Part shown: one piece after another, positions 5,486 through 59,168 of the stretch | Position numbering within the stretch: position 1 is the stretch's first letter | Layout: each line of letters begins with the position of its first letter | Origin: Oligoflexales bacterium | GTDB taxonomy: Bacteria > Bdellovibrionota_B > Oligoflexia > Oligoflexales > JALZUQ01 | Direction: 5' to 3' | DNA length: 64,000 nt | Assembly: GCA_023301465.1 (NCBI GenBank) | Contig: JALZUQ010000013.1 | Span: 3,286 to 67,285, forward strand | Program-made: the position numbers and the translations under genes | Notes under the pieces: generated by a model | Database searches by the model: none | The model's input: only the letters and a program-made list of their open reading frames with translations | What the model was told of the DNA's origin: nothing

Positions 5486-6556
<1,071 letters not shown>

Positions 6557-6582
6557 AAATGTTTTAGGGAGGTCGCTGCAAA

Positions 6583-7835: not shown

Positions 7836-7916
7836 AACATAAATTTTTGGAGAATTTTTATCTTTAAGAGCAATAACATTGTCATAAAAAAACGCATCTT
7901 ATTATTTGCGATTCTT

Positions 7917-13616: not shown

Positions 13617-13716
13617 ATACCGTAAAACCATTGCCAGCCCATTACTTAGTCAATTAAAGTGTGTTTTACTCGTATCTATTGCTAAATTGACCCTCCACTG
13701 CTATCAAACAACCCAA

Positions 13717-13737
13717 TTGAGAATGATTATCAATAAA
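13717..13737 (+). promoter_or_regulatory. Candidate Fur-family operator
   Basis: TTGAGAATGATTATCAATAAA is an imperfect palindrome (14/17 self-complementary). It matches 14 of 19 positions of the E. coli Fur consensus GATAATGATAATCATTATC. It ends 10 nt upstream of the ATG of a His-rich exported protein. The AT-rich background raises the chance of a random match. Confidence 0.25.
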
Positions 13738-13746
13738 GGTTACTCC

Positions 13747-26873: not shown

Positions 26874-29378
26874 ATGGAAAAAATTGAAGTATTTGGTGCT
26901 CGGGAAAATAACCTTAAAAATTTTGATGTAGATTTTCCTAGAGATAAATTGATTGTCATCACAGGTGTTAGTGGCTCAGGCAAGAGTTCCTTGGTTTTTG
27001 ACACTATCCTTGCTGAATCACAAAGACGTTTTTTTTATACCCTATCAAACTACACAAGGCAGTTTTTAAATATTCAAGACAGGCCAAAGGTTAGAAAAAT
27101 CAACGGTGTATCACCGGCAATTTTTTTGGCTCAAAACGAAACCGCTCCATCATCTCGTGCAACGGTTGCCTCACTCACCGATATTGGTGAGTTACTTGGA
27201 GTTTTGTTTGCAAGACATGGAACAAAACTTTGCCCTGATCATGGACTAGAAACCACTGGCTCTAGCCTAAAGAGTATTGTTTCTGAGGTACAACGAAAGT
27301 TCAAAAACAAATATATGCTGGTAAGTGCTCCCATCATCACGGACAAAAAAGGTAAATACAGCAAAGAACTAAAAAAGCTCATGGACGATGGTTTTCAACG
27401 TTTTTTTATTGATGGTGAGATGATTACTACTGAAGACGAAGTACCTTCTTTGAGTGGAGCTCACAAACACACCATTAAACTCGTTGTAGACTTGGTAAAA
27501 GCAGATCAAGCATCTACAAAAAGACTTCAAAGAGCAATTGAAGTAGCTTTGAAGCATGGTGGAGAGCATGTTGAAATCACATTAAAAACCAAAGAAGATT
27601 ACGATTTCAAAAACAGTGCCACCTATTCTCTTCAAAATGGTTGTCCTGATTGTGGGTTTAGTTGGCCTAAACTAGACTCGCGTTATTTTTCAAGCAACTC
27701 CCAAGGCAGGTGCGAAGAGTGTAATGGCTATGGATACTTTGATACCAGCGAAGAAGGCACACCTATAAAGCAAGACCTTGCATTTCAAATGAGGTACTGG
27801 GAAGACTGTGAGTTTTGTGAGGGCACTGGACTTCTTGAGGACTTAGAACACGTTCAAATTGAGGAAACCAATATACATGAGCTATATCAATATAGTTTAA
27901 GTGAACTGCATGGCGTGGTAAAAAAACTAAAGTCTCCCACGAAGAACCCTGCCTTTTTAAGAATTCAAACTGAAATTCTCACAAAAATCACTCAACTAAC
28001 TGATATGGGTTTGGGATATTTACAGCTTTTTAGAAGAATCAAAACCATCTCAGGCGGCGAACTTCAAAGGCTTCGACTTGCAAGCCTTTTGAATGCAAAC
28101 CTTAGTGGTATTATGTACGTATTTGATGAGCCGTCTCAAGGGCTTGCACCATCTGAAATTGAAACCATTGCTAAAATTCTACTGAAACTCAGAGATCGAG
28201 GGAATTCGTTATTTGTGGTGGATCATGACGAAATCATGATGGAGTACGCAGATATTATTTACGATATGGGACCCGGTGGTGGGCCAGAGGGTGGAAGGCT
28301 TCTAAGTCAATTTGCTCCAAAAGACGCAAAGCTTCACTCAAAAACATCTCATTCTGCCATGGCATTGTTTGAATATCAAAATTCAAAAAAGAGTCCCAAA
28401 CCAAAATCATCCACCATCAAAAAAAACGATGATTTTTTAGTGCTTCACAAACCCGAGCTAAATAATTTAAAGATAAAGTCTGTCAAGTTTCGAAAAAAAT
28501 CTATTAATATCGTGTCAGGAGTTTCTGGTGCTGGAAAATCCAGCCTTACAAAAGGTGTTTTGCATTATGCTCTCACTCAAGTGACTGACAAAAAACGGAA
28601 AGGCCCAGTAGAATCCGAGTTTTTTGAAAGCATTGAAAACTCTAATGAAATTGAGCATGTTTACCTTGTTAACAGAAAGCCACTCGCTAAAAGCAGTGTG
28701 AGCACACCAGCAACTTATCTTGATATATACTCAGACATACGCAAACTCATGGCGAAAGTCCCAACAGCACAAGTGCTTGGATTGACCATTAAAGACTTTT
28801 CATTTCATTCAAAAGGCGGAAGGTGTGAAGTTTGCGGCGGCCGTGGATATGAGTCTGTGACGATGAGGTTTTTACCAGACACAAAAACAGTTTGTTATCA
28901 CTGCCAAGGAAAACGTTTCGATCAAGCGGTCCTATCAGTACAGTACAACGGCCTAAATATCTCTGAAATTCTTAACTTGTCTATCGGCGAGGCTATTAAG
29001 GTTTTTGAAAACCATAAAAAAATTGCTTCCAAACTTCAAAACGCTATCAACCTTGGGCTTGGGTATCTTAAATTAGGACAGCCTACCTCTACTTTCTCCG
29101 GAGGAGAAGCTCAACGCATGAAGTTAGTGCCTATCGTATCCAAGAAAAAACCTGCTTGGATTATCTTAGACGAACCGACCATGGGGCTTCACCATCAAAA
29201 CATACTACAACTCACCACGGCTCTTCACGAACTCGTTAGCCGTGGCTTTACCTTTGTCATTATTGATAATGCCCCAACCCTAATTGAGCGTTCTCACTGG
29301 CAAATTGAACTGGGACCGGGTTCGGCTGAAAACGGTGGTAAGATTATGTTTGAACGAAGCATTAAAACGAAACACTAA
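26874..29378 (+). CDS. uvrA: UvrA-family excinuclease ATPase, short form lacking the insertion domain
   Basis: 834 aa. N-terminus ARENNLKNFDVDFPRDKLIVITGVSGSGKSSLVFDT, two ABC modules (LSGGELQRLRLA; FSGGEAQRMKL) and zinc modules (CPDCG...CEEC...CEFC; CEVCGGRG...CYHCQG). The start abuts the pdxA stop with a 0-nt gap. Confidence 0.85.
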   Translation: MEKIEVFGARENNLKNFDVDFPRDKLIVITGVSGSGKSSLVFDTILAESQRRFFYTLSNYTRQFLNIQDRPKVRKINGVSPAIFLAQNETAPSSRATVASLTDIGELLGVLFARHGTKLCPDHGLETTGSSLKSIVSEVQRKFKNKYMLVSAPIITDKKGKYSKELKKLMDDGFQRFFIDGEMITTEDEVPSLSGAHKHTIKLVVDLVKADQASTKRLQRAIEVALKHGGEHVEITLKTKEDYDFKNSATYSLQNGCPDCGFSWPKLDSRYFSSNSQGRCEECNGYGYFDTSEEGTPIKQDLAFQMRYWEDCEFCEGTGLLEDLEHVQIEETNIHELYQYSLSELHGVVKKLKSPTKNPAFLRIQTEILTKITQLTDMGLGYLQLFRRIKTISGGELQRLRLASLLNANLSGIMYVFDEPSQGLAPSEIETIAKILLKLRDRGNSLFVVDHDEIMMEYADIIYDMGPGGGPEGGRLLSQFAPKDAKLHSKTSHSAMALFEYQNSKKSPKPKSSTIKKNDDFLVLHKPELNNLKIKSVKFRKKSINIVSGVSGAGKSSLTKGVLHYALTQVTDKKRKGPVESEFFESIENSNEIEHVYLVNRKPLAKSSVSTPATYLDIYSDIRKLMAKVPTAQVLGLTIKDFSFHSKGGRCEVCGGRGYESVTMRFLPDTKTVCYHCQGKRFDQAVLSVQYNGLNISEILNLSIGEAIKVFENHKKIASKLQNAINLGLGYLKLGQPTSTFSGGEAQRMKLVPIVSKKKPAWIILDEPTMGLHHQNILQLTTALHELVSRGFTFVIIDNAPTLIERSHWQIELGPGSAENGGKIMFERSIKTKH

Positions 29379-31965: not shown

Positions 31966-33498
31966 TTAAAGTGACCTTAAACGTTTTTGTGCTCTATCTA
32001 AAAATATCTTTTGTTCGTGCTTTGAGTTTTTTACAGAACCTGCTCCAAGTAAAACGACCCTACCGTTTATGATACCAAAAGCAACACGCACTGTGGAATT
32101 CATTTTTAGCTCATATACGCCAGCTTGAAGCACCATTTTTATTCTAGCATTCTTCTTATTTTGAATAGCATCTAGTAAAAGCTTATATGCAGTTCTCAAA
32201 TCTTTTAAGTTATTTGGTTCCTCAAAAAATTTCTTTATTTCTTTTTTAATGAGCTTTGTACCAGCAAAATTGAGCATAAAATCTAATTTTGCGACATCGG
32301 ATAACTCGTTAATTTCTTCTTTGGTTTTATGACCATTCTCGTCATCATCACCTGACACAGGTAACACCATTGGCCCTCTAGTTTTTACCTTTTGTTTCTT
32401 ACGACCTTGATTAATTTTATGACTTCTATCGTTTGTTTCTGTATTAGGTTTAAATACTTTTGGGGATGGCGATAAAGATACGTCCGTAATAGTCTCTGGT
32501 ATTTTAATCTTATCAATTTTTTTAGATATTAATACATGAACATATCCTAATACCGACTTCTTAACGACAGATCCACTGACATTACTTCGGACATGATCAG
32601 CAGAAAGGATGCTGAAAATCACTTTTTCAATAAAAGACTTAATCAAAGGATCATAAGGGGTTTTTTTAAAGATTTTACGTGTATATCTATCACTTAATTT
32701 TTTGATTTTTTTCTCTGATCTCCGTAAATCATAATATGATCCGGGCAGTAATTTAACTAAACCAAGAATGAATGGTTTTAAATCACTCCATATTTTCATA
32801 CCTCGATCAACTAAAAAAGCATAACGATTTTTCTTTTGAATAAACCTGACATCTTTATCTGATATATTATCACTACCGTCATTTCTTATGATTAATGCAA
32901 GACCAATCTCTGTGAAATATTTAAAAATTTTTGTGGCATCTGTCTTACTAATAGATCGGAAGAAAGCTTTTGAAAAGTAGCTCTTTATCAAACCATCTGT
33001 TAACTCAGGCTGTATTTCTTCCCAAGATGGGTATGTCAATAAGTCAGTCATTAAAATTCTTTTAGTCGTTGTTCCTAAACCATTTAGCTCTTCGCTACTC
33101 CATACAATTTTTTTTCTAGGCCTTATTAATCTTGATTTTTTTCTTAATTGTGGATTTAACTTAAAAAATGAAAGTAAACCTTCTAGACCAACGTATGAAT
33201 GTGCTGAGTATTCTGGCGTTTTGAGTTTTTTAGCAACTAACTCCCATTGTTTGTCACTAACGCCTTTTAACTGAAAATATGAATGAATCAATTCAAACAA
33301 CTGAAAGTGCTCATTAGGACTTTCTTTGATTACTGACATTTGTTGGACTGTTAATGCCGACTCTAAATAAGAATAAATCAGTTCGGAATTTAAGCGAGTG
33401 TCTGTTCTTCCCTTAAAATGATCATGACACTCTTCAGTAGAAGAAAAGCAAGGCGGTGAAACTAAGAACAAAATTAAGCTAAAGACTAAAGTCTTCAT
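31966..33498 (-). CDS. Exported protein with C-terminal HigB/RelE (Gp49-like) toxin-fold domain
   Basis: ATG 33498 gives MKTLVFSLILFLVSPPCFSS (signal peptide). About 400 aa of unknown function follow. The C-terminus is ...AGVYELKMNSTVRVAFGIINGRVVLLGAGSVKNSKHEQKIFLDRAQKRLRSL, which matches the G-L-[FY]-E-L-[RK] / R-V-x-F / V-V-L-L / K-K...A-x-K-R pattern of Gp49/HigB toxins. Confidence 0.5.
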   Translation of the reverse strand: MKTLVFSLILFLVSPPCFSSTEECHDHFKGRTDTRLNSELIYSYLESALTVQQMSVIKESPNEHFQLFELIHSYFQLKGVSDKQWELVAKKLKTPEYSAHSYVGLEGLLSFFKLNPQLRKKSRLIRPRKKIVWSSEELNGLGTTTKRILMTDLLTYPSWEEIQPELTDGLIKSYFSKAFFRSISKTDATKIFKYFTEIGLALIIRNDGSDNISDKDVRFIQKKNRYAFLVDRGMKIWSDLKPFILGLVKLLPGSYYDLRRSEKKIKKLSDRYTRKIFKKTPYDPLIKSFIEKVIFSILSADHVRSNVSGSVVKKSVLGYVHVLISKKIDKIKIPETITDVSLSPSPKVFKPNTETNDRSHKINQGRKKQKVKTRGPMVLPVSGDDDENGHKTKEEINELSDVAKLDFMLNFAGTKLIKKEIKKFFEEPNNLKDLRTAYKLLLDAIQNKKNARIKMVLQAGVYELKMNSTVRVAFGIINGRVVLLGAGSVKNSKHEQKIFLDRAQKRLRSL

Positions 33499-33682
33499 GT
33501 GTTTTCCTTGGCTGAGCAATTAACCAAGCTCAGTTATCATTCAAGCACTACTTGAGTCAATACAGGAGAAACCTAAAGAACCTTCACCACTTAAGTAATT
33601 GTATTTATTAATATTTACACAAAGTGTTTTCATCACAAACTTACCACGATTAAATTTGTTTTTATCTGCATTCATATTTCCA

Positions 33683-35384: not shown

Positions 35385-36416
35385 GTGTCATTAACCTATC
35401 TGTTACGCCGCCTACTCCTAGTGATCCCTACCTTTATTGGCATCACTATTTTAGTTTTTGGCATTACCCGTATTGTACCCGGCGGGCCCATCGAAAGAAT
35501 TCTCTCGGAAGCACAGCTAGCTCAGTCTGGAGAAAGCAGTGGACCAAGTGGTGTTATTGGAAGTGCTGCTTCTTCTCTATCTGACGAACAAATGGACCAA
35601 CTAAAAGAGTTTTATGGCTTTGATAAACCAACACCAATTGCTTATGTCCACTGGTTATCAAAGTTGGCCCGTTTAGACTTAGGAACTTCTACACGCTACT
35701 ACGAACCTGTTTGGGATACGATTGCAGAACGCCTACCTATTTCAACTTACTATGGATTACTTAGCTTACTCATTGCGTACCTCATATCTGTTCCTCTAGG
35801 AGTATTAAAAGCTATTAAGCACAGAACCTTCATCGACAACAGTACGTCAATTTTAATTTTTGTCGGTTATGCAATTCCTCCACTTGTGATTGCCGTTCTT
35901 CTACAAGCATGGCTTGGTGCATATATGGAGTGGTTTCCACTTGGTGGCTTTATGAGTGATGAGTTCAGTGATCTAAGCTTTTTTGGAAAAGTAAAAGACC
36001 TTTTCTGGCACAGTTTTTGTCCTCTGATTGCTTATATTGCAGGTAGTTTTGCATTAATGACCATGATGATGAAAAACGCTTTAATGGATAACTTATCTGC
36101 AGATTATGTTCGAACCGCAATGGCAAAAGGCCTAAGTTTTAAGTGGGCTGTCATGAAGCACGCGATGCGAAATAGCCTTATCCCTCTTGCAACTCACTTT
36201 GGAAATAACATTGGTTTTTTCTTAGCAGGCTCTCTATTTATTGAGCAGGTTTTTAATATTGATGGTTTTGGGTTACTTGGATACGAATCTCTTTTAGAAA
36301 GAGACTATCCGGTTGTGATGGGTATTTTAGCAATCACCGCCGTTTTACAATTGATTGGTAATATCTTGTCTGATTTTTGTGTTGCACTAGTTGATCCACG
36401 GGTACAGTTTGAATGA
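35385..36416 (+). CDS. Peptide ABC importer permease (OppB/DppB/YejB type)
   Basis: 343 aa with N-terminus YLLRRLLLVIPTFIGITILVF and the EAA-type loop ADYVRTAMAKGLS. It is first in a five-gene operon. Confidence 0.85.
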   Translation: MSLTYLLRRLLLVIPTFIGITILVFGITRIVPGGPIERILSEAQLAQSGESSGPSGVIGSAASSLSDEQMDQLKEFYGFDKPTPIAYVHWLSKLARLDLGTSTRYYEPVWDTIAERLPISTYYGLLSLLIAYLISVPLGVLKAIKHRTFIDNSTSILIFVGYAIPPLVIAVLLQAWLGAYMEWFPLGGFMSDEFSDLSFFGKVKDLFWHSFCPLIAYIAGSFALMTMMMKNALMDNLSADYVRTAMAKGLSFKWAVMKHAMRNSLIPLATHFGNNIGFFLAGSLFIEQVFNIDGFGLLGYESLLERDYPVVMGILAITAVLQLIGNILSDFCVALVDPRVQFE

Positions 36417-37462
36417 TAAAACTTCGATTTGATCCATTAACCCTAAAAAAGTTTCGTAGGTTTCGCGAGATTAAGCGTGGCTATTACTCGCTTTTGATCA
36501 TGCTATTCTTACTATTTGCAGCGATGTTTGCAGAGCTCTGGATAAATAGCCGCCCGCTGATGGTGAAGTATGAAGGTCAGTATTTCTTTCCCACATACGG
36601 ATCTATTATTCCGGGCACGGAGTTTGGCTTAGATTATCCGTCTGAAACAAAATACCGCGAGCTTCTCAAAAAGTTTGAAGGTCAAAATGAAAATTGGGCT
36701 CTTATGCCGCTTATTCCATATAACGCTGTAGAAACCCATTCGATTGAAGGTGAATATCCACCTTACCCACCTAATGCAAAGCTCAAACACTACCTTGGCA
36801 CTGACACTATTGGAAGAGATATTGTTGCAAGACTAGTCTACGGATTTAGGATTTGTATCTTTTTTTCTTTATTGGTTTTGGTTTTTAGTTATGCAATTGG
36901 CATCATTATGGGCTGTGCTATGGGTTTTTTAGGTGGAAAATTCGATATGATCATGCAAAGAATCATTGAGATTTGGTCTAATATTCCTGTTCTTTATATC
37001 ATTATTGTCATCGCTTCAATTGTCACACCTAATTTTTGGATCATGGTCACACTTGCCGTTATCTTTGGCTGGCATCCCATTACTTACTATATGAGAGCGG
37101 TAACTTATAAAGAAAAAGCTAGGGAATATGTTCAAGCAGCAAGATCACTTGGTGCATCTCCCATGAGAATCATCCTCAAACAAATCATGCCCAACACCTT
37201 GTCGGTGGTTGTTACTTTTGCCCCTTTTGCAATCGCAGGTGGTATCACCATGATTACTGCACTTGATTACCTAGGCTTTGGACTGCCTGCACCAACACCG
37301 AGCTGGGGGGAGTTACTGTCGCAAGGCCAAAAAAATCTCGACGATTACTGGATCGTATGGTCCGTTATTGTATTTATGATTTCCGTCTTAGTGATGGTTA
37401 CATTTATAGGGGAAGCGGTTCGCGAAGCCTTTGACCCCAAAAAATTTACTGTTTATAAATAG
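36413..37462 (+). CDS. Peptide ABC importer permease (OppC/DppC/YejE type)
   Basis: 349 aa with HYLGTDTIGRDIVARLVYG and YVQAARSLGASPMRII motifs. It overlaps the upstream permease gene by 4 nt. Confidence 0.85.
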   Translation: MIKLRFDPLTLKKFRRFREIKRGYYSLLIMLFLLFAAMFAELWINSRPLMVKYEGQYFFPTYGSIIPGTEFGLDYPSETKYRELLKKFEGQNENWALMPLIPYNAVETHSIEGEYPPYPPNAKLKHYLGTDTIGRDIVARLVYGFRICIFFSLLVLVFSYAIGIIMGCAMGFLGGKFDMIMQRIIEIWSNIPVLYIIIVIASIVTPNFWIMVTLAVIFGWHPITYYMRAVTYKEKAREYVQAARSLGASPMRIILKQIMPNTLSVVVTFAPFAIAGGITMITALDYLGFGLPAPTPSWGELLSQGQKNLDDYWIVWSVIVFMISVLVMVTFIGEAVREAFDPKKFTVYK

Positions 37463-37474
37463 GGAGAGTGTTAC

Positions 37475-39340
37475 ATGAAAATTCTATGGATTTTAGGGAT
37501 TGTCAGCTTACTATCTGGCTGCAATCAATGTTCATCTCAAGAATCAACAGATGGAGCACAAACCACTACCAGCACGAATACCGCAGATTTAAAAAGCTAT
37601 CCAAATACTCCTATCACTGAAGAAAATCTAAAGTGGTTAACAAACGAAACTGATGCACCTCTTGGTAGTCCTGACGCTATAAAAGGAGGAACATTTAAAG
37701 CATTCATGCTTACTTACCCCCTTACTTTCAGAAGCGTTGGCCCTGACTCGAATCATAGCCTGCGTTCTTTATTCTTGGACAATGATCTTTCTTTGATTTA
37801 CTCACACCCAAATACTCAAAACATCATTCCCGGCATTGCAGAAAGTTGGGCTTTTAGTTCTGATAAAAAATCTATGTATTTCAAAATCAACCCAAACGCA
37901 CGCTGGAGTGATGGAGTTCCTATCAGAGCGGATGATTTTATGTATATGTTAGAGTTCTACAGATCAAAACACATACTTTCACCATTTAGAAACAACTACT
38001 ACACAGAGATGATTGACAAGATTGTTAAACATGACGATTTAACGATTTCAATATCTTCTACCAAGCCCAGACCGGATATCCATGAATACCTTGCTTTAGG
38101 ACCAGTTCCGAGACATTTTTACGGCGTAATCGACAAGGATTTTGTCAAAAAATATAACTGGTCTATCATTCCTAACTCAGGCCCTTATATTCTAGAGAAG
38201 TTTTCTAAAGGAAAATCCTTAGTATTTAAACGCAAAAAAGACTGGTGGGCTAAAGATCTTCGATTTAATAAAGGTCGTTTTAATGTAGACAGAATATCCT
38301 TTAAGACCATTCGCGATCAAAATACGGCTTTTACTTACTTTATGAAAGGTCAATTAGACTCTTTTAATTTAACTCAACCTGATTATTGGTACAAAGATGA
38401 AAAAGCTAGACCACTTGTAAACGGTTATATCAAAAGGCATGTTTTCTATAATGACCTTCCACGGCCCAGTCGTGGTTTTTGGATGAACCAAGCGAGTGTT
38501 TTACTGAGCGATATCCATATCAGAAGAGGCATCGCTTACTCCATTGACGCTAATAAAGTTATTAAACAAGTGTTAAGAGGAGAATCACAAAGACTCAGTC
38601 AAGTTTTTACTGGTTATGGTAAATACACCAACCCAAATATCAAACCACTTCCTTTCGACCCAAAAAAAGCTGCTGCATCATTCGCAAAAGCTGGGTTCAC
38701 CAAACGTGGTGGCGACGGAATCTTAATGAAAGGCAGACAAAGACTTTCTATAGAAGTTCGTTACGGCAATAAGCAAAACGGTGACCGCCTTGCTATTGTA
38801 AAAGAATCAGCAAAAGAAGCAGGGTTAGAGTTAGTCATCAAGTATATGGATGGCTCTGCTTTTTTCAAAAGTGTTCTTGAGAAAAAACACCAAATTGCAT
38901 TTATGGGATGGAGCGTGAGCTCCAAACCTAGCTACTGGCAAGGATTTCATACAGACAACGCAAATAAGCCACAAACGAACAACATCACCAACACGAGCGA
39001 TCCAGCTCTGGATAAAAAAATCGAAATTTACCGTGCATCTATCAATACCGATGAACGTATTAGCCTAGCAAAAGAGATACAACAGATGATTCAAGACCGT
39101 GTTTTACAAATTCCATCTTGGGAAGCTTTTTACTTTCGCAACGGTTACTGGAGATGGTGGAAACTTCCAAAGGTGCCTGGAAGTAAAGAATCTGGATCAA
39201 GCTTTGATCCAACAGGTTACACAAGTGGCGGGCTGTACTGGTATGACAAGGCTGAGCACGACAAAGTAAAAGCGGCAATGAAATCAAAAACAAAACTAGA
39301 CAACACGGTTGAAACTTATGACCAATACAAAACAAACTAA
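37475..39340 (+). CDS. Family-5 peptide-binding lipoprotein (OppA/YejA-like)
   Basis: 621 aa with lipobox LLSGC. The size and position inside the operon fit a cluster-C/family-5 solute-binding protein. Confidence 0.8.
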   Translation: MKILWILGIVSLLSGCNQCSSQESTDGAQTTTSTNTADLKSYPNTPITEENLKWLTNETDAPLGSPDAIKGGTFKAFMLTYPLTFRSVGPDSNHSLRSLFLDNDLSLIYSHPNTQNIIPGIAESWAFSSDKKSMYFKINPNARWSDGVPIRADDFMYMLEFYRSKHILSPFRNNYYTEMIDKIVKHDDLTISISSTKPRPDIHEYLALGPVPRHFYGVIDKDFVKKYNWSIIPNSGPYILEKFSKGKSLVFKRKKDWWAKDLRFNKGRFNVDRISFKTIRDQNTAFTYFMKGQLDSFNLTQPDYWYKDEKARPLVNGYIKRHVFYNDLPRPSRGFWMNQASVLLSDIHIRRGIAYSIDANKVIKQVLRGESQRLSQVFTGYGKYTNPNIKPLPFDPKKAAASFAKAGFTKRGGDGILMKGRQRLSIEVRYGNKQNGDRLAIVKESAKEAGLELVIKYMDGSAFFKSVLEKKHQIAFMGWSVSSKPSYWQGFHTDNANKPQTNNITNTSDPALDKKIEIYRASINTDERISLAKEIQQMIQDRVLQIPSWEAFYFRNGYWRWWKLPKVPGSKESGSSFDPTGYTSGGLYWYDKAEHDKVKAAMKSKTKLDNTVETYDQYKTN

Positions 39341-40322
39341 AGACCCAATCCTTGAGGTAAAAAACCTCGCCGTTGGGTTTCAAACAGACCGAGGCCTCCT
39401 CACTGCTGTCGACGATGTCAGTTTTGAGGTTTACCCCGGAGAGACTCTAGGAATTGTTGGTGAATCCGGCTGTGGTAAAAGCGTAAGCTCTATGGCGATC
39501 ATGGGACTTTTACCAAGACCTGCTGGCCGAGTCACAAACGGTGAGATTATATTTGAAGGCAAGGACCTCAACAAAGCACCTTTGGAACACATGTACAAAG
39601 TTCGAGGCAACCAAATTGGCATGATCTTTCAAGAGCCCATGACTGCACTAAACCCGGTTCATACCATTCAAAAACAACTTGGAGAAGCGTTTAGACTCCA
39701 CCACCCAGACATGACCGAAGAAACTATCTTTGAAAAATCCGTTGAGATGCTCACAAAGGTAGGTATTCCTGCACCAAGAATGAGAATCCTTGATTTTCCT
39801 CATCAACTATCAGGAGGAATGAGGCAAAGAGCCATGATTGCCATCGCTCTTGCGTGTAACCCAGAACTTTTAATTGCCGATGAACCAACAACCGCATTAG
39901 ATGTCACCATCCAAGCTCAGATTCTTGATCTATTGAAGTCACTTCAAAAAGACCTTGGCATGGCCATGATATTTATCACCCATGACCTTGGTGTTGTTTC
40001 TCATGTATGTGACCGTGTTCTTGTCATGTATGCAGGCCGTGCTGTCGAAGTTGCACCGACTGATGTGATCTTCAAAAACCCTCAGCACCCTTACACCAAA
40101 GGCCTTCTTTCTTCATTGCCGAGCTTTCACACCAAACCCAAAGCAAAACTTCAAACCATCGAAGGTCAAGTTCCGTCCCTTGCAAACATGCCTACAGGCT
40201 GCCGTTTTGCTGACAGGTGCGAATACGTCCAAGACAAGTGCCGCGAAGAAACCCCTATTCTAGAAAACATTCGTGAAAACCATCAAATACGTTGTATCCG
40301 CCATAAGGAAATATCCTCATGA
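39318..40322 (+). CDS. Peptide ABC importer ATPase (OppD/DppD type)
   Basis: GESGCGKS (Walker A), [19 protein letters not shown], and the C-terminal oligopeptide-transporter extension with a Cys cluster ([14 protein letters not shown]). I take ATG 39318 rather than TTG 39309. Confidence 0.9.
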
Positions 40323-41302
40323 CCCATTCTGAAAATCAGGCACTCCTTCAAGTAAAAGACTTAGTAAAATACTACCCTATCCGCGGTGGTCTTTTCTTTC
40401 GAGAGATAGCACGCGTCCACGCTGTTGATGGAATTAGCTTTGAAATTAAACCCGGCCAAACCCTTGGATTAGTTGGGGAATCTGGTTGTGGAAAATCAAC
40501 CGTAGGTCGCACTCTCATCAAACTTCACGAAGCAAACTCTGGCCAAATTATTTTTGACGGACACGATATCACCCACCTTAGTCGCAAAGACTTCCGACCT
40601 CACCGTGAAAATATTCAATTTATCTTTCAAGATCCGTATGAATCTCTTAATCCACGACACACCGTCAGACAGGTCCTAGAAGAGCCTTATTTGATTCATT
40701 GTAACTATTCAAAGAAAGAACGCATAAAACGAATAGAAGAGCTTCTAGAGCTCGTGGGACTCCCTAAAACAGCAATCCACAAATACGCTCATGAATTTTC
40801 TGGCGGTCAACGTCAAAGAATTGGAATTGCAAGAGCCCTCGCACTGAAACCAAAATTAATTATCTGTGATGAACCCGTTTCAGCTTTGGATGTTTCCGTA
40901 CAAGCCCAAGTCATGAACCTGATGGTAGATCTTCAAAAAGAATTTAACCTATCTTATTTGTTTATTGCTCACGACCTATCAGTCGTAAAGCACCTCTGTG
41001 ACGAAATTGCTGTGATGTATCTTGGTAAGATCGTCGAAAAGGGCCCAGCGGAAGAATTATTCAACTCTCCAAAACACCCATACACGAAAGCATTGATATC
41101 TGCAGTTTGTCATGTCGGTGATGAATCCAACAAAGAAAGAATCATTTTGGAGGGAGAAGTTCCATCACCTATTTCTCCACCATCAGGGTGCAGGTTCCAC
41201 ACAAGGTGCCCATACACTGAAGCAAAGTGCCGAAACCAAGTACCAGAAGTACAACTTGATGGTGACACGCTAGTGGCCTGCCATTTTCATAAAGAAATTT
41301 GA
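40319..41302 (+). CDS. Peptide ABC importer ATPase (OppF/DppF type)
   Basis: [35 protein letters not shown], and the C-terminal CRFHTRCPYTEAKC motif. It overlaps the upstream gene by 4 nt. Confidence 0.9.
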   Translation: MTHSENQALLQVKDLVKYYPIRGGLFFREIARVHAVDGISFEIKPGQTLGLVGESGCGKSTVGRTLIKLHEANSGQIIFDGHDITHLSRKDFRPHRENIQFIFQDPYESLNPRHTVRQVLEEPYLIHCNYSKKERIKRIEELLELVGLPKTAIHKYAHEFSGGQRQRIGIARALALKPKLIICDEPVSALDVSVQAQVMNLMVDLQKEFNLSYLFIAHDLSVVKHLCDEIAVMYLGKIVEKGPAEELFNSPKHPYTKALISAVCHVGDESNKERIILEGEVPSPISPPSGCRFHTRCPYTEAKCRNQVPEVQLDGDTLVACHFHKEI

Positions 41303-41314
41303 TTGATCTAATTG

Positions 41315-41956
41315 CTAAAGAAATGACCTAACAACTGCCGTGAGACCATTAATAATAAATTGAATCGCGATGGCCGTTAACAAGATACCCATCAGCTTTG
41401 TCAGTAAGTTCAAACCTGTCTTACCTAATATTTTATAAAGTAAGTTTGACATCTTTAAAATTAAAAAACAGCACAGTATTGCTAAGGTGATTGCCAACAA
41501 CAATGAAATGATGCGAATATCACTTGCAGCTTTTGATGAGTACAGTACGACTGTTGAAATGGATCCGGGGCCAGCCAGAAGTGGAATCGCTAAAGGGAAT
41601 ACCGAAATATCATCTCTATCAATGGATTCTATTTTTTCTTCTGAACTCACGCGGTTTCGATTATCGCTTAATTGAGCTAAACCAAATTTCAAAAGCAAAA
41701 TCCCGCCAGCAATCTGAAAAGCAGGTAATGTAATTCCAAATACTCTAAAAATTGCCATACCGCTTGCTGCGAAGGTACACAATATTGCTAGAGCAATTAA
41801 CGAGGCTTTCAACCTGACATGATTATGTTCTTTGGGGTTATGGATGTCTTGGGTCAAACTCATATAGACAGGAATCACTGCAAATGGATCGACGATGACA
41901 AAAATCGCCACAAATGCGTTGAAAATATAAGTTAGTTCTTGTTGAAGTATATCCAT
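41315..41956 (-). CDS. MarC-family (UPF0056/NAAT) membrane protein
   Basis: The FVAIFVIVDPFAVIPVYMSL signature and six predicted TM helices support the call. I take ATG 41956 rather than 42004. Confidence 0.8.
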   Translation of the reverse strand: MDILQQELTYIFNAFVAIFVIVDPFAVIPVYMSLTQDIHNPKEHNHVRLKASLIALAILCTFAASGMAIFRVFGITLPAFQIAGGILLLKFGLAQLSDNRNRVSSEEKIESIDRDDISVFPLAIPLLAGPGSISTVVLYSSKAASDIRIISLLLAITLAILCCFLILKMSNLLYKILGKTGLNLLTKLMGILLTAIAIQFIINGLTAVVRSFL

Positions 41957-42049
41957 ACCCGACCTTACGGAACACTCAATCGAAGAGTGATGCTTAGTAG
42001 GCACTCATTGCCTAAGAAGGCGGAGTAACGAAGATGGGCCGAGGTGTCA

Positions 42050-42096
42050 ATAAAAAACCCCCAATGATCCGGGCTCCAGCGGATTATTGGGGGTTT
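42050..42096 (-). terminator. Rho-independent terminator of the Lys-rich protein gene
   Basis: On the minus strand: ACCCCCAATAATCC-gctggagccc-GGATCATTGGGGGT followed by TTTTTTA. The 14-bp stem has one mismatch. Confidence 0.7.
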
Positions 42097-42133
42097 GAAA
42101 TTCGACTATACGAAAGATGAGTCCTCTAGATGA

Positions 42134-42712
42134 CTATTTCTTCTTACGTTTAGTTGCTTTCTTCTTAGCAGGCTTACGCTTAACTGCTTTTTTCTTAGCA
42201 GGCTTACGCTTAACTGCTTTTTTCTTAGCTGGTTTACGCTTAGCTGCTTTTTTCTTAGCTGGCTTACGCTTAGTAGCTTTTTTCTTCGTTGCTTTTTTCT
42301 TCGTAGTCTTACGTTTTTTAGCAGTTGTTTTTCTTTTAGCAGTTTTACGCTTAGTAGCTTTCTTCTTAGTCTTACGCTTAGTAGCTTTTTTCTTAGTTAC
42401 TTTACGCTTCGTAGCTTTACGCTTAGTTGCTTTCTTCTTAGTCTTACGCTTAGTAGCTTTTTTCTTCGTTACTTTACGCTTAGTAGCTTTTTTCTTCGTT
42501 ACTTTCTTCTTTTTCTTCGTTGCTTTCTTCTTTGTCTTACGTCTGGTTGTTTTTTTAGCAGTTGTTTTACGCTTTGCTACTTTTTTCTTCGTTGCTTTTT
42601 TCTTCGTTTTCTTTTTAGTTGCTTTACGCTTCGTAGTGCTTTTTCTTTTTGTAGCCTTACGCTTCGTTGCCTTCTTCTTCGTTGCTTTTTTCTTTGTTCT
42701 TTTCTTTGCCAC
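42134..42712 (-). CDS. Histone-H1-like / Hc-like lysine-rich repeat protein
   Basis: GTG start 5 nt after a perfect AAGGAGG. The 192 aa consist almost entirely of K/R/T/A/P in KKKATKRK and KRKPAKKKA(V/A) repeats. A terminator lies directly downstream. The long opposite-strand ORF is the hydrophobic mirror image. Confidence 0.7.
   Translation of the reverse strand: MAKKRTKKKATKKKATKRKATKRKSTTKRKATKKKTKKKATKKKVAKRKTTAKKTTRRKTKKKATKKKKKVTKKKATKRKVTKKKATKRKTKKKATKRKATKRKVTKKKATKRKTKKKATKRKTAKRKTTAKKRKTTKKKATKKKATKRKPAKKKAAKRKPAKKKAVKRKPAKKKAVKRKPAKKKATKRKKK
42150..42700. repeat. Imperfect tandem coding repeats (about 24-30 nt period) inside the Lys-rich gene
   Basis: The unit gcaggcttacgcttaactgcttttttctta occurs twice in direct succession. 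Diverged copies follow (gctggtttacgcttagctgc..., cttacgcttagtagctttt...). Confidence 0.8.
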
Positions 42713-43088
42713 GTTTTCCTCCTTGAAATTCTGAGCTAAAGTTACCTAGGATTCAACTCACTATACTGGAGCCAATCAATATGATGAAAGCAAAAATGCC
42801 TAACATCTAAACTAAGATCATATTTATCATCGGATCAATAATTAAAAAGTTTAATTTAACTAAAGTTATCAATCCACATCATTCAAAATATGACATACTT
42901 TATTATTACCAATTTCATTTTCAGTTTTCAAATTTTTTTTAATAAAATTAGTATTATTTCATCTGTTCGAATCTATCTTTAGATAAAAAAAGACAAAAAA
43001 AAAGATAAAAAACATTTTTTTTATCTTTTTTTACTCAATTAGTTTATCTGCATCTGGAAGCTGTAAACACTGAGCTGCAAGGGTTACA

Positions 43089-43436
43089 TCAAGACATCAT
43101 TCCTGCTTTCATGAATATATCTGCAATATTTTTATCTTTTGACGAACAAACTAAACCATAACGAATTAAATCAAACTTTCCGAAGTCAGGTTTGCTCCAA
43201 ACAACCTCAAAAACAACTTTTTCATCACCAATTTCTAAAGTTAGTGTTTCTCCAATAGAAATTTCTTCTGCAGACAAGATACCAAGTCCGTTGTCAGATA
43301 CATCAATTGGCTTGCAAGAAATACAACGATCAAACTCATTTCGACGCATTTTTCCCGGCAATAAGCCTGTTAATAACTTACGGCTTTTGTTTCGGCGTTC
43401 TTTTAGTTTTAGATTACCTAAATTGATATACGACAT
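43089..43436 (-). CDS. Stand-alone PilZ-domain (c-di-GMP-binding) protein
   Basis: 115 aa with RRNKSR (RxxxR) followed about 25 aa later by DVSDNGLG (DxSxxG), the bipartite PilZ c-di-GMP motif. Confidence 0.75.
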   Translation of the reverse strand: MSYINLGNLKLKERRNKSRKLLTGLLPGKMRRNEFDRCISCKPIDVSDNGLGILSAEEISIGETLTLEIGDEKVVFEVVWSKPDFGKFDLIRYGLVCSSKDKNIADIFMKAGMMS

Positions 43437-43603: not shown

Positions 43604-44566
43604 CTATTTCTTACCTTTTATGTAAAAACGGTAAGGTTTTGGTTCATTTTCTTTTGCAGATAAAGAATCCTCCAAAAACTCACCTAACGAGTCTACAGGA
43701 GACCAAGTAGGATGAGAGGATTGCTCATCTGTGCCAAGAAAACCCTCATAGATCAACTCTACTTCTCTAAAGCCTACTCGCTTTAATAGTTTTGATAACG
43801 CCGAAACGGAAGGTAAAAACCAAAAACCTTTCGCCCCATAGTACTTTGAAGAAGCAATATAACTGACAGGTTTTGGGTCATCAATCCCAGAAGTGTCTAA
43901 GATGACTTCCCCTCCTTTTGAAAGAGAGTCAAAGATATCTTTAAGCATCACCAAGGGGTCACGCCTATGGTAATAAATCCCAAGACACAAAATCGTATCA
44001 AAAAACTTTGGGTATAAGCTTAATTGCTCAACACCTAAAGGCTCCATATAGAGCGGAACTTCTCTATTTAAAAAACTTTTGAAAGTTTCAAAACACTGCC
44101 AATGCTTTGCAACAGGCTCTAACCCCACGACTAACTCTGGCTGCTCTTCTAAAAGCTTCCACATAAAGTAACCGTTATTTGAGCCAATATCACAAACTTT
44201 TTTACCTTGAACATTTAAATGAGGTTTTAATCGAGACCATTTAATAGAGCTATCCCACTCAGCATCAATAGATAGCCCAAAAATATCATAAGGCCCCTTC
44301 CGCCATGGAATAAGATGCTTACAAATCGACTTAATATCTTCAAAGTGTGGAGGGTGACATTCATCTTTTTTACCAATCTTGACTCGTGGGCCAACTACTT
44401 CAAGAAAATCAGTTTTTACATGAGATATTTTTTCTTTTAAAACGAGATAATCTGTTAGCCAAGAGCTTGATTGGTTTTTCTTATGAAACTGAGAACGTAA
44501 CTCTAAGATTTTAGAGCACTTTATTTGATTCGTGTATTTATCTAAGTAGTCTAGCATGGGTCTCAC
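43604..44566 (-). CDS. cmoB: tRNA U34 carboxymethyltransferase CmoB
   Basis: LIPWRKGPYDIFGLSIDAEWDSSIKWSRLKPHL...DIGSNNGYFMWKL...LGIYYHRRDPL is collinear with E. coli CmoB motifs (PWRKGPF, IDTEWRSDWKW, VLYHRR). Confidence 0.85.
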   Translation of the reverse strand: MRPMLDYLDKYTNQIKCSKILELRSQFHKKNQSSSWLTDYLVLKEKISHVKTDFLEVVGPRVKIGKKDECHPPHFEDIKSICKHLIPWRKGPYDIFGLSIDAEWDSSIKWSRLKPHLNVQGKKVCDIGSNNGYFMWKLLEEQPELVVGLEPVAKHWQCFETFKSFLNREVPLYMEPLGVEQLSLYPKFFDTILCLGIYYHRRDPLVMLKDIFDSLSKGGEVILDTSGIDDPKPVSYIASSKYYGAKGFWFLPSVSALSKLLKRVGFREVELIYEGFLGTDEQSSHPTWSPVDSLGEFLEDSLSAKENEPKPYRFYIKGKK

Positions 44567-44569
44567 TCT

Positions 44570-45310
44570 TTAGACTGTCATGGCAAATGTTGCGAAATTG
44601 TGACAACGACTCACTAGGTGAATTTCTTTAAACCCAGCTGAAGCAAAAATAGCTCTGTTTTGTTTTTCGGTTAACGGCACCAAGATATTTTGAAGAGCAA
44701 TGCGTTTGTTTTCAATTTCTTCGATGCTGTATCCTTGATCAAGTTTATATTGATAATACAAATCATCAGAAATTTTTTGAAAGCTAGGACTATCAGACAG
44801 AAGTTTTTCAGAAACAAAAACAATTCCACCCTCTTCTAAACTAAAGTGGATAGATCTCATAAGCTCTAATCGTTGGTCCATTGGAAGAAACTGAAGTAGG
44901 TAGTTTACTACAACCATATGTGAAGCTGGTAACTGAGCATCCATAACACTGCCATGAAATAACTCGACTCTATCACCGAAACCTTTAAGTTTTGCTTTCG
45001 CTATATTGAGCATATCCAAAGAAAAGTCCACCCCAAGAAAGTGCTCTATTTGTGGAAGCTCTTTTGCGAGATGCTCAATTGCTAAACCAGTAGAACAACC
45101 TAAATCCACACAAACCCCACCAGATTCTGGAAGATAATTTGCTGCCCAATGAGTGATCCATTGCTGAGTTTCTCGGTACATAGGAACTGAACGCTCAATC
45201 ATGTCATCAAAGGCGGTTGCAACCTTTAAATCAAACGAAAAAGATCCTTCAGAAAACGGTTCACAAAACACGTTGTCTTTTTGAGATAATATGGGATGAT
45301 TTGAATCCAT
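44570..45310 (-). CDS. cmoA: Carboxy-S-adenosyl-L-methionine synthase CmoA
   Basis: 246 aa with FDDMIERSVPMYRETQ (CmoA signature) and the SAM-binding DLGCSTG. It lies upstream of cmoB on the same strand. Confidence 0.85.
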   Translation of the reverse strand: MDSNHPILSQKDNVFCEPFSEGSFSFDLKVATAFDDMIERSVPMYRETQQWITHWAANYLPESGGVCVDLGCSTGLAIEHLAKELPQIEHFLGVDFSLDMLNIAKAKLKGFGDRVELFHGSVMDAQLPASHMVVVNYLLQFLPMDQRLELMRSIHFSLEEGGIVFVSEKLLSDSPSFQKISDDLYYQYKLDQGYSIEEIENKRIALQNILVPLTEKQNRAIFASAGFKEIHLVSRCHNFATFAMTV

Positions 45311-47310: not shown

Positions 47311-48039
47311 CTACTTTAAAGACTTTTTATCATGTTGTGCAACTAAATCATCGAGCTGCAATGAAAGTTTTTGGCTTAAGTCTTGTGGTAATATATCTAT
47401 ACAATTCATCATATCAAGAATAAACGTATTTTTGACCGTTTGATAGTTATCTAAATTTTCTGTTTCTGCTTTTGCACTGTCAAAACTTTGTGTTGGTAAC
47501 TCTATCTTTTTAACCATTGCAGAAATTAAATTTTTCATAAAAGAAACTTTATCTGATTCGTCTAATTCTTTGCTTGATTCTACAATTGAATGATTTATTT
47601 GTTGATTGGTTTTTTGAAGAAAAACTAAAGTATTAAATTTATAAGTATTATTAGTTTTATCATAATTTAAAGTAAGTGTTGTATTGTTGTGTTCAACAAG
47701 ATAGCCCAATAAGCTTTGTCCATTTACTATGAAAGCATCCTGGTGATAGCCTACCTTTTTTTTGGTAATACTCGATTGATTAATAATATAAAATATCCCA
47801 TCAAATGATTGCTGATTACGAGCAACAAAGTAATCTTCTGGCAAGTTGAACTCTTCCAGCCTTATTCCAATGGGAGCGTATTTTTGTAAAAGAACATATG
47901 CAGAGTATAGCTTAGAGCTATCAGAATCTGATGAGGATACTTCATCGATAATTTGATAAGTTGATTGAATCAAAGAGGTAGATGGGGCGACACCACAACT
48001 GAAGCAGAATAAAATAACACTAAAAACCATGTGCTTCAT
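47311..48039 (-). CDS. Hypothetical lipoprotein
   Basis: 242 aa with lipobox CFSCG. No recognisable domain. Confidence 0.5.
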   Translation of the reverse strand: MKHMVFSVILFCFSCGVAPSTSLIQSTYQIIDEVSSSDSDSSKLYSAYVLLQKYAPIGIRLEEFNLPEDYFVARNQQSFDGIFYIINQSSITKKKVGYHQDAFIVNGQSLLGYLVEHNNTTLTLNYDKTNNTYKFNTLVFLQKTNQQINHSIVESSKELDESDKVSFMKNLISAMVKKIELPTQSFDSAKAETENLDNYQTVKNTFILDMMNCIDILPQDLSQKLSLQLDDLVAQHDKKSLK

Positions 48040-48692: not shown

Positions 48693-49793
48693 TTGAGGGG
48701 ACCATTGAGTAAACTCTTTCAGTTGTGGCTACAAAGTGTTTTTGGTCGACAAAAACATCAGCTCACTAAAAACATCACAAATGGAATCATGGGTGTGATG
48801 ATTCTTGGCACAGCTTATTTTGTTTTAAAAAACACCCTTGAAGGGCAACTACAACAAGTTTCTCAATCAGCATACGAAGTTGCCTCTATTTTTTTAAGTC
48901 GCCTAGGCTGTGTATTTGCGGGAATGTTTATTGCTGTAAGAATTGATGCTTCTAGCTCAGATGGTTTTAAAGAGTTCTATTATTGGCAATATGTCCCTCA
49001 AACTACCATTCAACTGTGGCTGATCGCTAGAAAAGCATTATACTTCATCTTTGCATCCACAGTCAGCGTCTTTGTACTACACTTACTTTTTCCTATTATG
49101 CCCATCATGCAAACTATCTTTATTTTTCTGGCTTCTTGTTTGGTGAGTTTCTTTTGGTTTAGAGTATCTAGATCCGCTCTTTCTAAGACTTCAACATCTC
49201 TTCCACAGTCATGGCAGTATGCCTTACTAAGACTCAAACTATTTTCTTCAGAAAAATTCTTCTTTTTCCTTGGTATTTTAATTTCTTCTCTCGTCATCTA
49301 TGTTGTTTATATTAAAAGCTTTAAGTCTATTCACGCACACTATTTGTTTGCACTTGCTATTGGTATGATTGTTTCTATCTTACAAGCCTCAGATATCGAA
49401 CGACAGCTAAAATCATCTTGGCTTGATATATTAAGCGGAAAAACACACGATCAATTTATATCGTTATTTGCTTTTAGTGGTGGTTTTCTTTCATTGCTTT
49501 TTGGAACTCTCATCTTTGTGACATATTACTTCAATACAGGAAATATGGATGGTGGGTTTAACTTAGTATTACTACCAGTTTTACCTCCAATTTTTACAGC
49601 TGTACTTTTGTTTCAAATCGACCCATCTAAAACTATTGTTTTAATTAGTTTAGTCACTCTTGTTTCATTATTCTTAGGTTCTCTTTGTATTCTACACCCT
49701 ATTGGTTACCTCGCTTCATTCATCATGGTCATGGTAGCTGCCTCTCAACAACAACACCGTCTTTATCCATACGTAGGAGAAAGAGTCACATGA
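48693..49793 (+). CDS. Polytopic membrane protein, probable permease partner of the downstream ABC ATPase
   Basis: 366 aa with about 8-10 hydrophobic helices and a TTG start. Its stop overlaps the ATPase ATG (ATGA). No recognisable family motif. Confidence 0.5.
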   Translation: MRGPLSKLFQLWLQSVFGRQKHQLTKNITNGIMGVMILGTAYFVLKNTLEGQLQQVSQSAYEVASIFLSRLGCVFAGMFIAVRIDASSSDGFKEFYYWQYVPQTTIQLWLIARKALYFIFASTVSVFVLHLLFPIMPIMQTIFIFLASCLVSFFWFRVSRSALSKTSTSLPQSWQYALLRLKLFSSEKFFFFLGILISSLVIYVVYIKSFKSIHAHYLFALAIGMIVSILQASDIERQLKSSWLDILSGKTHDQFISLFAFSGGFLSLLFGTLIFVTYYFNTGNMDGGFNLVLLPVLPPIFTAVLLFQIDPSKTIVLISLVTLVSLFLGSLCILHPIGYLASFIMVMVAASQQQHRLYPYVGERVT

Positions 49794-59100: not shown

Positions 59101-59168
59101 TCAAGAGTTAAGCTAGCTAACCCTGAACAAAAAAATACAAAAAGCAAAGCAACATTCAAGTAAGTCAT
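56130..59168 (-). CDS. Fused polytopic membrane domain / spermidine-synthase-like methyltransferase fold / TPR-like C-terminus
   Basis: 1012 aa. The N-terminal ~450 aa have more than 10 TM helices. The middle has aminopropyltransferase-like motifs (IVGYGGGFTVDFL; FDIIVSQPSHSWLAGVANLFTQDFFEIVSENLTQGGVYGQW). The C-terminal ~250 aa are helical-repeat-like. Confidence 0.7.
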   Translation of the reverse strand: MTYLNVALLFVFFCSGLASLTLETVWIRVLSLSVGSTSTAMGIVLGIFFGGLGIGGYIGGKLSSKVKEHLKVYAWIEAAVGLYALLIFFPLNEFHIFLRFLNFGESFFVLNAVIKFSLVGLCILGPAVGMGITLPLLVKFIQLQDNSAGKTVSILYGVNTLGAVAGAFCTSYFFIPYIGVNGANFLAIAVYFIAALMIYGLHLKYSSLFKQVIEKKAEVQKSIKTLPNYQFLSIAFVTGFSAIGFEVIWTKYLTVFLGTNIFGIGMVLALFLIGIALGSLMVSRWIDKFHNLKLAIGVSLAFTAFVCFAVTALLNVAPKMSLTLQVLLSDIWPVSTLFAKSIVSGIIMFPATLLFGILFPLIVKAMTNDGGDVSLNLGRAYGINTLGSILASMGLGLLVLPSLGSHVASMIAVVPLVGAGVWVWSSQKNTSITKIMPYALGVLLLLGSWGIEPNFTNIIKSAYFSASDFKSIPEVLDAFNEDEKFVQITEGKSAITSLSIDSSGGENFNRYLRLKTNGLNESIYDLDNIDVFPRYEALLGMLPYLFSKNINSSFIVGYGGGFTVDFLSQTDLGLVQVAELEQGIMDAAEYVHKNNNPITARKNVKLQIEDARFVLATKQRGPFDIIVSQPSHSWLAGVANLFTQDFFEIVSENLTQGGVYGQWLNLYNIDSIAVQSILKTFFTVFEHGAVFTNPEDQEMIIVGSHEPLKLNSKRFEKLVAKPQMKRKLHNIPANSINDILSFFAMTREEVVSNFNETPVNTDLNAYAEVRQSRLFYSDQNQLDGELKEFFSKHYPKEALSIRESLQYLDLDPFAFLKSVLNQGQFEKIYSLRDSIAPLMPTNKEQKIAKGELLFKARMFEKSVVEFEQMMNSEPSTSYLNWWSAGLLEQQKFKEVNEIFKKHNSYANILTKCYWFHAATSSNQNDLSSSLLAELLQYEEKAVEVCGEYFHKIVGVYYFNNNDIENALSQFEQYYEIESDDLEVLNYLIKGYEKTGAKERSLAFKTYLEQLTL

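Follow-up and report, generated by a model that had tools for sequence, protein, structure and literature searches.

A stand-alone lysine-repeat gene in an uncultured Oligoflexia-like bacterium encodes a candidate nucleoid-condensing polycation of H1-like composition

The C-terminal tail of histone H1 and the protamines are disordered polycations that condense DNA via charge neutralisation. Among bacterial proteins, the closest described systems are Chlamydia Hc2 (gene hctB; 165–237 aa) and Bordetella BpH1 (182–206 aa), DNA-binding proteins made of pentamer repeats with evenly spaced charge and A/V/T/P spacers, whose repeat DNA changes through the gain and loss of units (PMC2848022). Compared with Hc1, Hc2 also binds RNA with greater affinity and is the stronger repressor of translation (PMC2848022). 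In Pseudomonas AlgP, a lysine-rich repeat domain is needed to space polyP granules (PMC9239181), and the HC2-like protein Hsero_0382 is the second most abundant PHB-granule protein in Herbaspirillum (PMC3783465). Streptomyces DdbA is an example of a lysine-repeat tail that is attached to a folded domain (PMC3643593). The gene described here was found on a stretch of 64 kb of DNA with a G + C content of approximately 37%, which is referred to as the window in the following. The initial annotation had described its product as a histone H1-like protein, and the coding features on which the analysis is based are:

42134–42712, minus strand: lysine-repeat CDS with GTG start, TAG stop included; 192 aa, 38 [K][K/R][K]xx units
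42143–42286, minus strand: most regular DNA repeat, a 30-nt unit present 4.8 times with 91% match, encoding KRKPAKKKA[A/V/T] (Tandem Repeats Finder)
42117–42734, plus strand: mirror ORF on the opposite strand, 205 aa, rich in F/L/V/A/R, without a Shine-Dalgarno (SD) sequence

The 192-aa product contains 98 K (51%), 34 T (18%), 28 A (15%), 20 R (10%), 6 V (3%), 4 P (2%), 1 S, and a single M, which is the initiator, whereas the residues D, E, G, N, Q, H, C, I, L, F, Y, and W do not occur at all. Its net charge is approximately +118, with a pI of 12, a GRAVY of −2.2, and a calculated mass, with the initiator Met retained, of approximately 22.3 kDa. The K + R content of 59–61% compares to at most 22% in every other stop-to-stop ORF of at least 100 aa in the 64-kb window. 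Residues 2 to 192 can all be parsed, end to end, into 38 units led by K or R, 27 of which are [K][K/R][K]xx pentamers (KKKAT, n = 12; KRKPA, n = 4; KRKAT, n = 3; and others), and the charge autocorrelation of the protein peaks at lag 5 (0.71). On the nucleotide level, Tandem Repeats Finder detected a base period of 15 nt (5 aa) over most of the length of the gene. Composition, unit parse, and repeat detection thus agree with the initial annotation, which had described the whole ORF as lysine repeats with essentially no hydrophobic core. Digestion with trypsin would yield nearly exclusively peptides of 1–5 residues, so that a proteomics check based on this enzyme would fail. Shotgun proteomics with Lys-C would likewise miss the protein, and cleavage sites for Glu-C, Asp-N, and chymotrypsin are absent. 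The window forms part of a 652-kb metagenome scaffold of the ENA assembly WEIG22-1; the 192-aa gene was called in this assembly and in that of a second sample, both of which have the same DNA sequence as the window, and no copy of the exact protein was present in a collection of 15 billion proteins.

A search with MarC, which is encoded directly downstream, retrieved a 77%-identical MarC on two short contigs, L083 and L084, from two other ENA assemblies. Directly upstream of marC, and in the same orientation as in the window, these contigs contain a 5'-truncated K/R/T/A ORF that reads ATKRKATKRKTTKKRK...KRKPAKRKATKRKTKRKTTRRKKK and is followed by its stop codon. L083 and L084 come from different ENA accessions; position 1 of each contig falls on exactly the same base within the lysine-repeat gene, and the two are identical over 1413 nt. 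This shared break point suggests that the repeat systematically breaks short-read assembly, and genes of this kind are therefore likely to be under-recovered.

The orthologue retains the reading frame, the charge pattern, and the C-terminus (RKKK followed by the stop codon). The comparison covers this one, 5'-truncated orthologue and, in the window gene, the two-thirds towards the 3' end. All gaps between the two genes are multiples of three, with five internal gaps of 3 or 6 nt. The 114 aligned codons comprise 65 identical ones, 20 with synonymous changes, and 29 with replacements. Twelve of the 29 replacements are exchanges between K and R, 13 are exchanges among the A/T/V/P spacers, and only four convert a basic residue into a spacer or vice versa; the residue class was thus kept in 25 cases (basic for basic, spacer for spacer). 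No acidic, aromatic, or large hydrophobic residue was gained in either lineage. Many of the K-to-R differences are changes of whole codons between AAA and CGT that recur at the same place in successive units, a pattern that is read as the signature of repeat homogenisation (concerted evolution) with retention of charge. The initial annotation had also proposed that the repeat DNA makes the gene variable in length, which is plausible, but no such variability was observed: the window gene is identical in two samples, and the orthologue differs only by in-frame insertions and deletions, with the assembly breaking inside the repeat. On this evidence, the lysine-repeat ORF is a real stand-alone gene that is conserved and selected for charge and composition.

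The following elements were identified in the regions flanking the gene:

42718–42724, minus strand: SD sequence AAGGAGG with a 5-nt spacer to the GTG
42713–43088, minus strand: upstream intergenic region, 376 nt, AT-rich, which should hold the gene's own promoter
42120–42135, no strand assigned: near-palindrome AGTCATCTAGAGGACT, 16 nt, overlapping the stop codon of the lysine-repeat gene and identical at positions 357–372 of L083
42049–42096, minus strand: intrinsic terminator with stem CCCCCAATAATCCG / CGGATCATTGGGGG with A/U extensions, 8-nt loop, and T6 run
42045–42050, minus strand: TTGACA, directly past the T-run of the terminator and conserved in L083

The lysine-repeat gene carries strong expression signals. 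Its GTG start codon (42712–42710, minus strand) follows 5 nt after a perfect AAGGAGG (42724–42718, minus strand), precisely as the initial annotation had noted. This heptamer occurs in three copies in 64 kb (6.4 are expected by chance), and the other two copies lie inside genes. Among the 57 ORFs of at least 150 aa in the window, each of which was allowed its best start within the first 80 codons, the lysine-repeat gene alone has a 7-nt match to the anti-SD sequence. The hairpin with U-tract that had been reported directly downstream was found as well. Its 17-nt arms (42055–42071 and 42080–42096) are 94% complementary, enclose an 8-nt loop, and are followed by T6; the folding energy of −31.6 kcal/mol (z = −3.3) was not equalled by any of 200 shuffled sequences. 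A core of 30 nt of this terminator is 100% identical in L083, and the pair change at the base of the stem, from CCCCC/GGGGG in the window to CCTCC/GGAGG in L083, is compensatory, which indicates that the hairpin has been kept; the two versions fold equally well. In contrast to AGTCATCTAGAGGACT, which is 100% kept, the 3' UTR between this near-palindrome and the terminator has diverged in L083. It is conceivable that proteins bind to the near-palindrome or that it acts as an element of the mRNA 3' end. The protein is probably highly expressed and efficiently translated.

The TTGACA next to the terminator is likely the −35 box of the downstream marC, in which case the lysine-repeat gene would be monocistronic. 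In the region upstream of the gene, a promoter consensus scan yielded TTGAAA-18-AATAAT (42931–42902) as the sole candidate, with no enrichment over shuffled sequences, and no convincing sigma-54-like spacing was recognised by eye. The same AT-rich region contains a perfect hairpin consisting of A and T only (42997–43032; 16-nt arms AAAAAAAGATAAAAAA and TTTTTTATCTTTTTTT, 4-nt loop), which is located approximately 57 nt 3' of the stop codon of the adjacent PilZ-like gene and might act as a weak terminator or represent DNA with curvature or a regulatory role.

Because the lysine-coding strand consists of 75% purines and only 10% T, two of the three frames of the opposite strand are open in the window as well as in L083. 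The mirror ORF (42117–42734) that the initial annotation had listed on this strand does exist. A strand test based on synonymous and non-synonymous changes is weakened by the fact that the third codon positions coincide on both strands; the choice of the strand was based on the conservation of the start codon and N-terminus and on the openness of several mirror frames. The ATG of the mirror ORF (42117) and its N-terminal codons are not conserved in L083, which has stop codons instead. The gene callers picked the ORF on the minus strand over the mirror ORF, and the lysine frame is the only fully open frame on its own strand. The mirror ORF, which also lacks an SD sequence, was thus rejected as a gene and is regarded as a composition artefact.

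The codon choice of the lysine-repeat gene differs from the background formed by the long ORFs of the window, with AAG accounting for 51% of the Lys codons (background 23%) and CGT for 80% of the Arg codons (background 22%). KKK is nearly always encoded by AAG-AAA-AAA or AAG-AAG-AAA, so that no run of A is longer than 7 nt. Runs this short were obtained in 0.04% of synonymous shuffles and in none of 5000 simulations with background codon usage (minimum 9), but all of these codon and A-run statistics are inflated, since the repeat units are duplicates and not independent of each other. Long runs of A provoke transcriptional and translational slippage, and their avoidance fits a translated, probably abundant product.

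No family in Pfam-A was matched by the lysine-repeat protein (hmmscan, E up to 10), with the caveat that the composition-bias filter may suppress low-complexity matches, and there were no matches in NCBIfam, in PHROGs, or in a PDB sequence search. Fifty-six matches resulted from a word-indexed search that covered 5.8 billion proteins, and an exhaustive search with HMMER, covering 1.84 billion representatives, gave 41 matches with a top score of 68 bits. All of the 24 matches that were inspected are lysine-rich stretches inside larger proteins carrying SWIB/MDM2, BlaI, MarR, DksA, phasin-like, or unrelated domains, and no repeat-only protein of matching length was among the matches listed. These matches are composition-driven and were rejected as family members. 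As the inspected matches are all parts of larger proteins, no homologous family is detectable and the class is defined by composition; homology to Hc1, Hc2, AlgP, or H1 was undetectable in the Pfam, NCBIfam, and protein searches. Two metagenome proteins (P0031 and P0186) consist of a KKKAT-repeat N-terminal half and a strongly acidic C-terminal half, a self-neutralising architecture that is quite unlike the all-basic 192-aa protein. In the single-sequence AlphaFold model, residues 2–146 form a single helix with high pLDDT, whereas the C-terminus, which contains Pro, is coil; the pTM is 0.32. This modelled helix is read as the helical propensity of the K/A/T repeat on charge neutralisation, with no tertiary fold.

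The genomic context of the lysine-repeat gene and other features of the window that were used to assess the host are:

35385–41302, plus strand: opp/dpp ABC transporter, neighbour of the lysine-repeat gene
41315–41956, minus strand: marC, downstream neighbour
43089–43436, minus strand: PilZ-like gene, 115 aa (22.3 bits, Pfam PilZ cutoff 22.5)
43604–45310, minus strand: cmoB and cmoA-like genes, neighbours
5519–10875, plus strand: cell-shape cluster with mreB (5519–6556), PBP2 (7917–9731), and rodA (9493–10875), based on Pfam matches
26874–29378, plus strand: UvrA-like ABC ATPase, 834 aa, with a UvrA_inter domain, shorter than canonical UvrA
56130–59168, minus strand: 1012-aa ORF with a sub-threshold N-terminal MFS_1 match (30.9 bits, cutoff 33.4) and approximately 700 residues without a match

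The best relatives of MarC in 185,579 species genomes (at most 61% identity) belong to Oligoflexales, Oligoflexus, and Pseudobacteriovorax MAGs. For MreB, a 98%-identical match is located on a separate metagenome contig of 20.6 kb (P0217), which implies that a close relative exists in public data, and a named match near the top, with 90%, is assigned to "Oligoflexaceae bacterium." Both markers thus place the host as an uncultured Oligoflexia-like member of the Bdellovibrionota. At the marC locus of the closest Oligoflexia MAGs (MarC identity approximately 60% or less), synteny is broken and no lysine-rich ORF was found near marC. Scans of JGI metagenomes with the PilZ-like neighbour and with the 30-nt terminator core gave no match. 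The 115-aa PilZ-like ORF itself is the sole member of its cluster in the 15-billion-protein collection; weak tblastn matches to it (27–29% identity) lie in two distant MAG loci (L010 and L011), at a distance of approximately 4 kb from marC. No nucleoid-related gene is adjacent to the lysine-repeat gene, whose neighbours give no functional hint, and no histone-fold, HU, or IHF gene was detected among the small ORFs of the 64-kb window. Elsewhere in the window, the UvrA-like ATPase may be a class II UvrA paralogue, and one ORF that was scanned between mreB and PBP2 had no Pfam match. The same applies, at the thresholds used, to eight ORFs of 242–651 aa (59537–61492, 13546–15075, 31966–33519, 16310–17761, 62618–63937, 48693–49793, 11799–12839, and 47311–48039), as is common in lineages that have been poorly sampled.

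Carrying 0.6 positive charges per residue and lacking a hydrophobic core, the chain cannot fold alone and must associate with polyanions. The reading that is preferred here, with moderate confidence, is that the protein would be a non-specific polyanion binder and most likely a nucleoid-condensing protein with DNA as its main target. According to this model, the gene would be transcribed as its own unit between the 376-nt AT-rich upstream region and the strong intrinsic terminator, and its product would be an intrinsically unstructured polycation of approximately 38 tandem units, each with three basic and two small residues (A/T/V/P). The protein would bind nucleic acid through electrostatic, sequence-independent contacts. 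Its main target would probably be the cell's own chromosome, where it would neutralise the backbone charge and bridge or condense the DNA in a manner resembling that of the H1 tail, Hc2, BpH1, and protamines. In principle, a single molecule carries enough charge to neutralise approximately 60 bp of duplex DNA. Since homology to characterised DNA binders is undetectable, it is from composition that we infer polyanion binding and, likewise, condensation and DNA as the main target. KKKAT/KRKAT repeats from metagenomes are found as tails of domains that are related to DNA or transcription (SWIB/MDM2, BlaI, MarR, and DksA), and this attachment of the same repeat text to DNA- or RNAP-binding domains is consistent with the DNA-binding interpretation. 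As the protein has no second domain that could confer specificity, the nucleoid is mildly favoured, being the most abundant polyanion. [quoted passage not shown] An improbable extension of the model would have the abundant polycation act together with such proteins as a counterpart of linker histones or protamines, producing a hyper-condensed, transcriptionally silent chromosome that is perhaps tuned by phosphorylation of the 34 threonines. If true, this would represent an independent bacterial version of the arrangement of core histones with H1 or protamines.

A main partner other than DNA is less probable, but is a serious alternative. The protein could tether or scaffold polyP or PHA granules, as AlgP, PhaF, and Hsero_0382 do, or could be an RNA- or ribosome-binding repressor of translation comparable to Hc2, possibly acting via coacervates. 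Composition alone cannot separate DNA from polyP or RNA, and precedents exist for each partner, namely the spacing of polyP granules by AlgP through its lysine-rich repeat domain (PMC9239181), the HC2-like protein that ranks second in abundance in Herbaspirillum PHB granules (PMC3783465), and Hc2, which binds RNA better than Hc1 and is the more efficient translational repressor (PMC2848022). Not every bacterial precedent listed in the initial annotation therefore indicates nucleoid condensation: Hc2 and BpH1 do bind DNA, but AlgP has been tied by experiment to the spacing of polyP granules (PMC9239181). However, the N-terminal domain that gives AlgP and PhaF their granule specificity is missing here, no ppk, pha, or phasin gene is located near the lysine-repeat gene, and no other fixed polyanion that such a protein would encounter in a cell comes close to chromosomal DNA in abundance. 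It is far less probable that no functional protein is made at all, be it that the open frame merely results from purine-rich, low-complexity repeat DNA or that the mirror ORF (42117–42734) is the true product. Stop codons are rare in a coding strand with 75% purines and 10% T, two frames of the opposite strand are also open, the exact protein is missing from the 15-billion-protein collection, and it has no family. These points are opposed by the perfect SD sequence at ideal spacing and the conserved terminator, by the status of the lysine frame as the only fully open one on its strand, and by an orthologue in which frame, charge pattern, and C-terminus (RKKK before the stop codon) are kept and all indels are in frame. 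The significant avoidance of A-runs and the mirror-ORF start, which is unconserved and has stops in the orthologue, also contradict this explanation.

The initial annotation had further suggested that, in an organism with a biphasic life cycle, the protein could compact either the cell's own DNA or that of prey. That a predator exports the protein in order to compact or inactivate prey DNA, or uses it as a stage-specific condenser in a biphasic predatory life cycle, is considered improbable. The host belongs to the Bdellovibrionota in the broad sense, and the nucleoid of attack-phase Bdellovibrio is unusually compact, with unknown determinants (bioRxiv 10.1101/2025.09.24.678257). Yet the premise of a biphasic life cycle is not established, as the nearest relatives by MarC and MreB are uncultured Oligoflexia MAGs and not Bdellovibrio, Bacteriovorax, or another known Bdellovibrio-like predator. 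Compaction of prey DNA would require export, but a protein with six V and no L, I, F, W, Y, or C contains nowhere a hydrophobic stretch suited to act as a signal peptide for Sec or Tat, and the gene has no secretion genes next to it. Moreover, the inventory of NAPs listed for B. bacteriovorus does not include such a protein (bioRxiv 10.1101/2025.09.24.678257).

If the protein is made at the level that its expression signals indicate, it would rank with the most strongly charged proteins that occur naturally in bacteria (61% basic and no acidic residues) and would be likely to have a major influence on how the chromosome is compacted in an uncultured lineage of the Oligoflexia. The gene also bears on the old idea of a bacterial origin of H1-like tails and on current work on the unusual chromatin of the Bdellovibrionota. 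Because genes of this type break short-read assemblies, escape homology-based annotation, and are invisible to trypsin-based proteomics, they are probably under-counted. The lysine-repeat, "H1-like" class as such is already known, and the finding is in this respect incremental.

Within this class, the protein most closely resembles Hc2 and BpH1, with which it shares the stand-alone organisation, a similar length (here 192 aa), consecutive lysine-rich pentamers, an even spacing of the positive charges, and A/V/T/P spacers; its host, unlike theirs, is Oligoflexia-like. The pentamers of Hc2 contain two basic residues, whereas three of five residues are basic here (61% K + R), and the main spacer is Thr instead of the Ala found in Hc2. 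Hc2 furthermore has a conserved N-terminus of 24 aa and a non-repeat C-terminal part of 69 aa, neither of which is present in the lysine-repeat protein. The latter does not match the Hc2 profile PF07382 and also has no 36-aa higher-order element. Hc1 combines a conserved N-terminal dimerisation domain with a lysine-rich C-terminus, whereas the lysine-repeat protein has neither a non-repeat N-terminus nor a Pfam match. The likeness to AlgP, PhaF, and Hsero_0382 consists of lysine-rich, low-complexity, disordered polycationic repeats that bind polyanions (in the present case as judged by composition), and the four C-terminal KRKPAKKKA units are similar to K-P-A-rich repeats. However, AlgP and PhaF have a structured N-terminal domain, KPAA tetrapeptides, and approximately 25% K (PMC9239181), while the lysine-repeat protein has no second domain and more than twice their charge density. 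The documented roles of AlgP and PhaF are in the positioning of polyP and PHA granules (PMC9239181, PMC3783465).

The proteins with SWIB/MDM2, BlaI, MarR, or DksA domains, which gave the best database matches, share the KKKAT/KRKAT/KRKPA repeat text, but in them the repeat is a tail on a folded DNA- or RNAP-binding domain, whereas it constitutes the whole protein here. Like the H1 tail, the lysine-repeat protein is a polycation rich in K/A/T/P, with a charge density that is nearer to that of protamines than to that of H1 tails. It lacks the winged-helix globular domain of linker histone H1 (Pfam Linker_histone), as judged from Pfam, the AlphaFold pTM of 0.32, and the PDB search, is lysine-based rather than arginine-based, and has no cysteines and no S/TPKK motifs. 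No evolutionary link to H1 or protamines is demonstrable. The designation as H1-like thus holds for the composition and for the pentamer architecture of the Hc2/BpH1 class, but does not extend to homology and denotes an analogy: with no profile match and no flanking domains, a comparison to H1 and Hc2 is reasonable in the sense of "works like," but fails in the sense of "is a member of." The lysine-repeat protein extends a known compositional class by a new and extreme example, from a lineage for which the class had not been described earlier.
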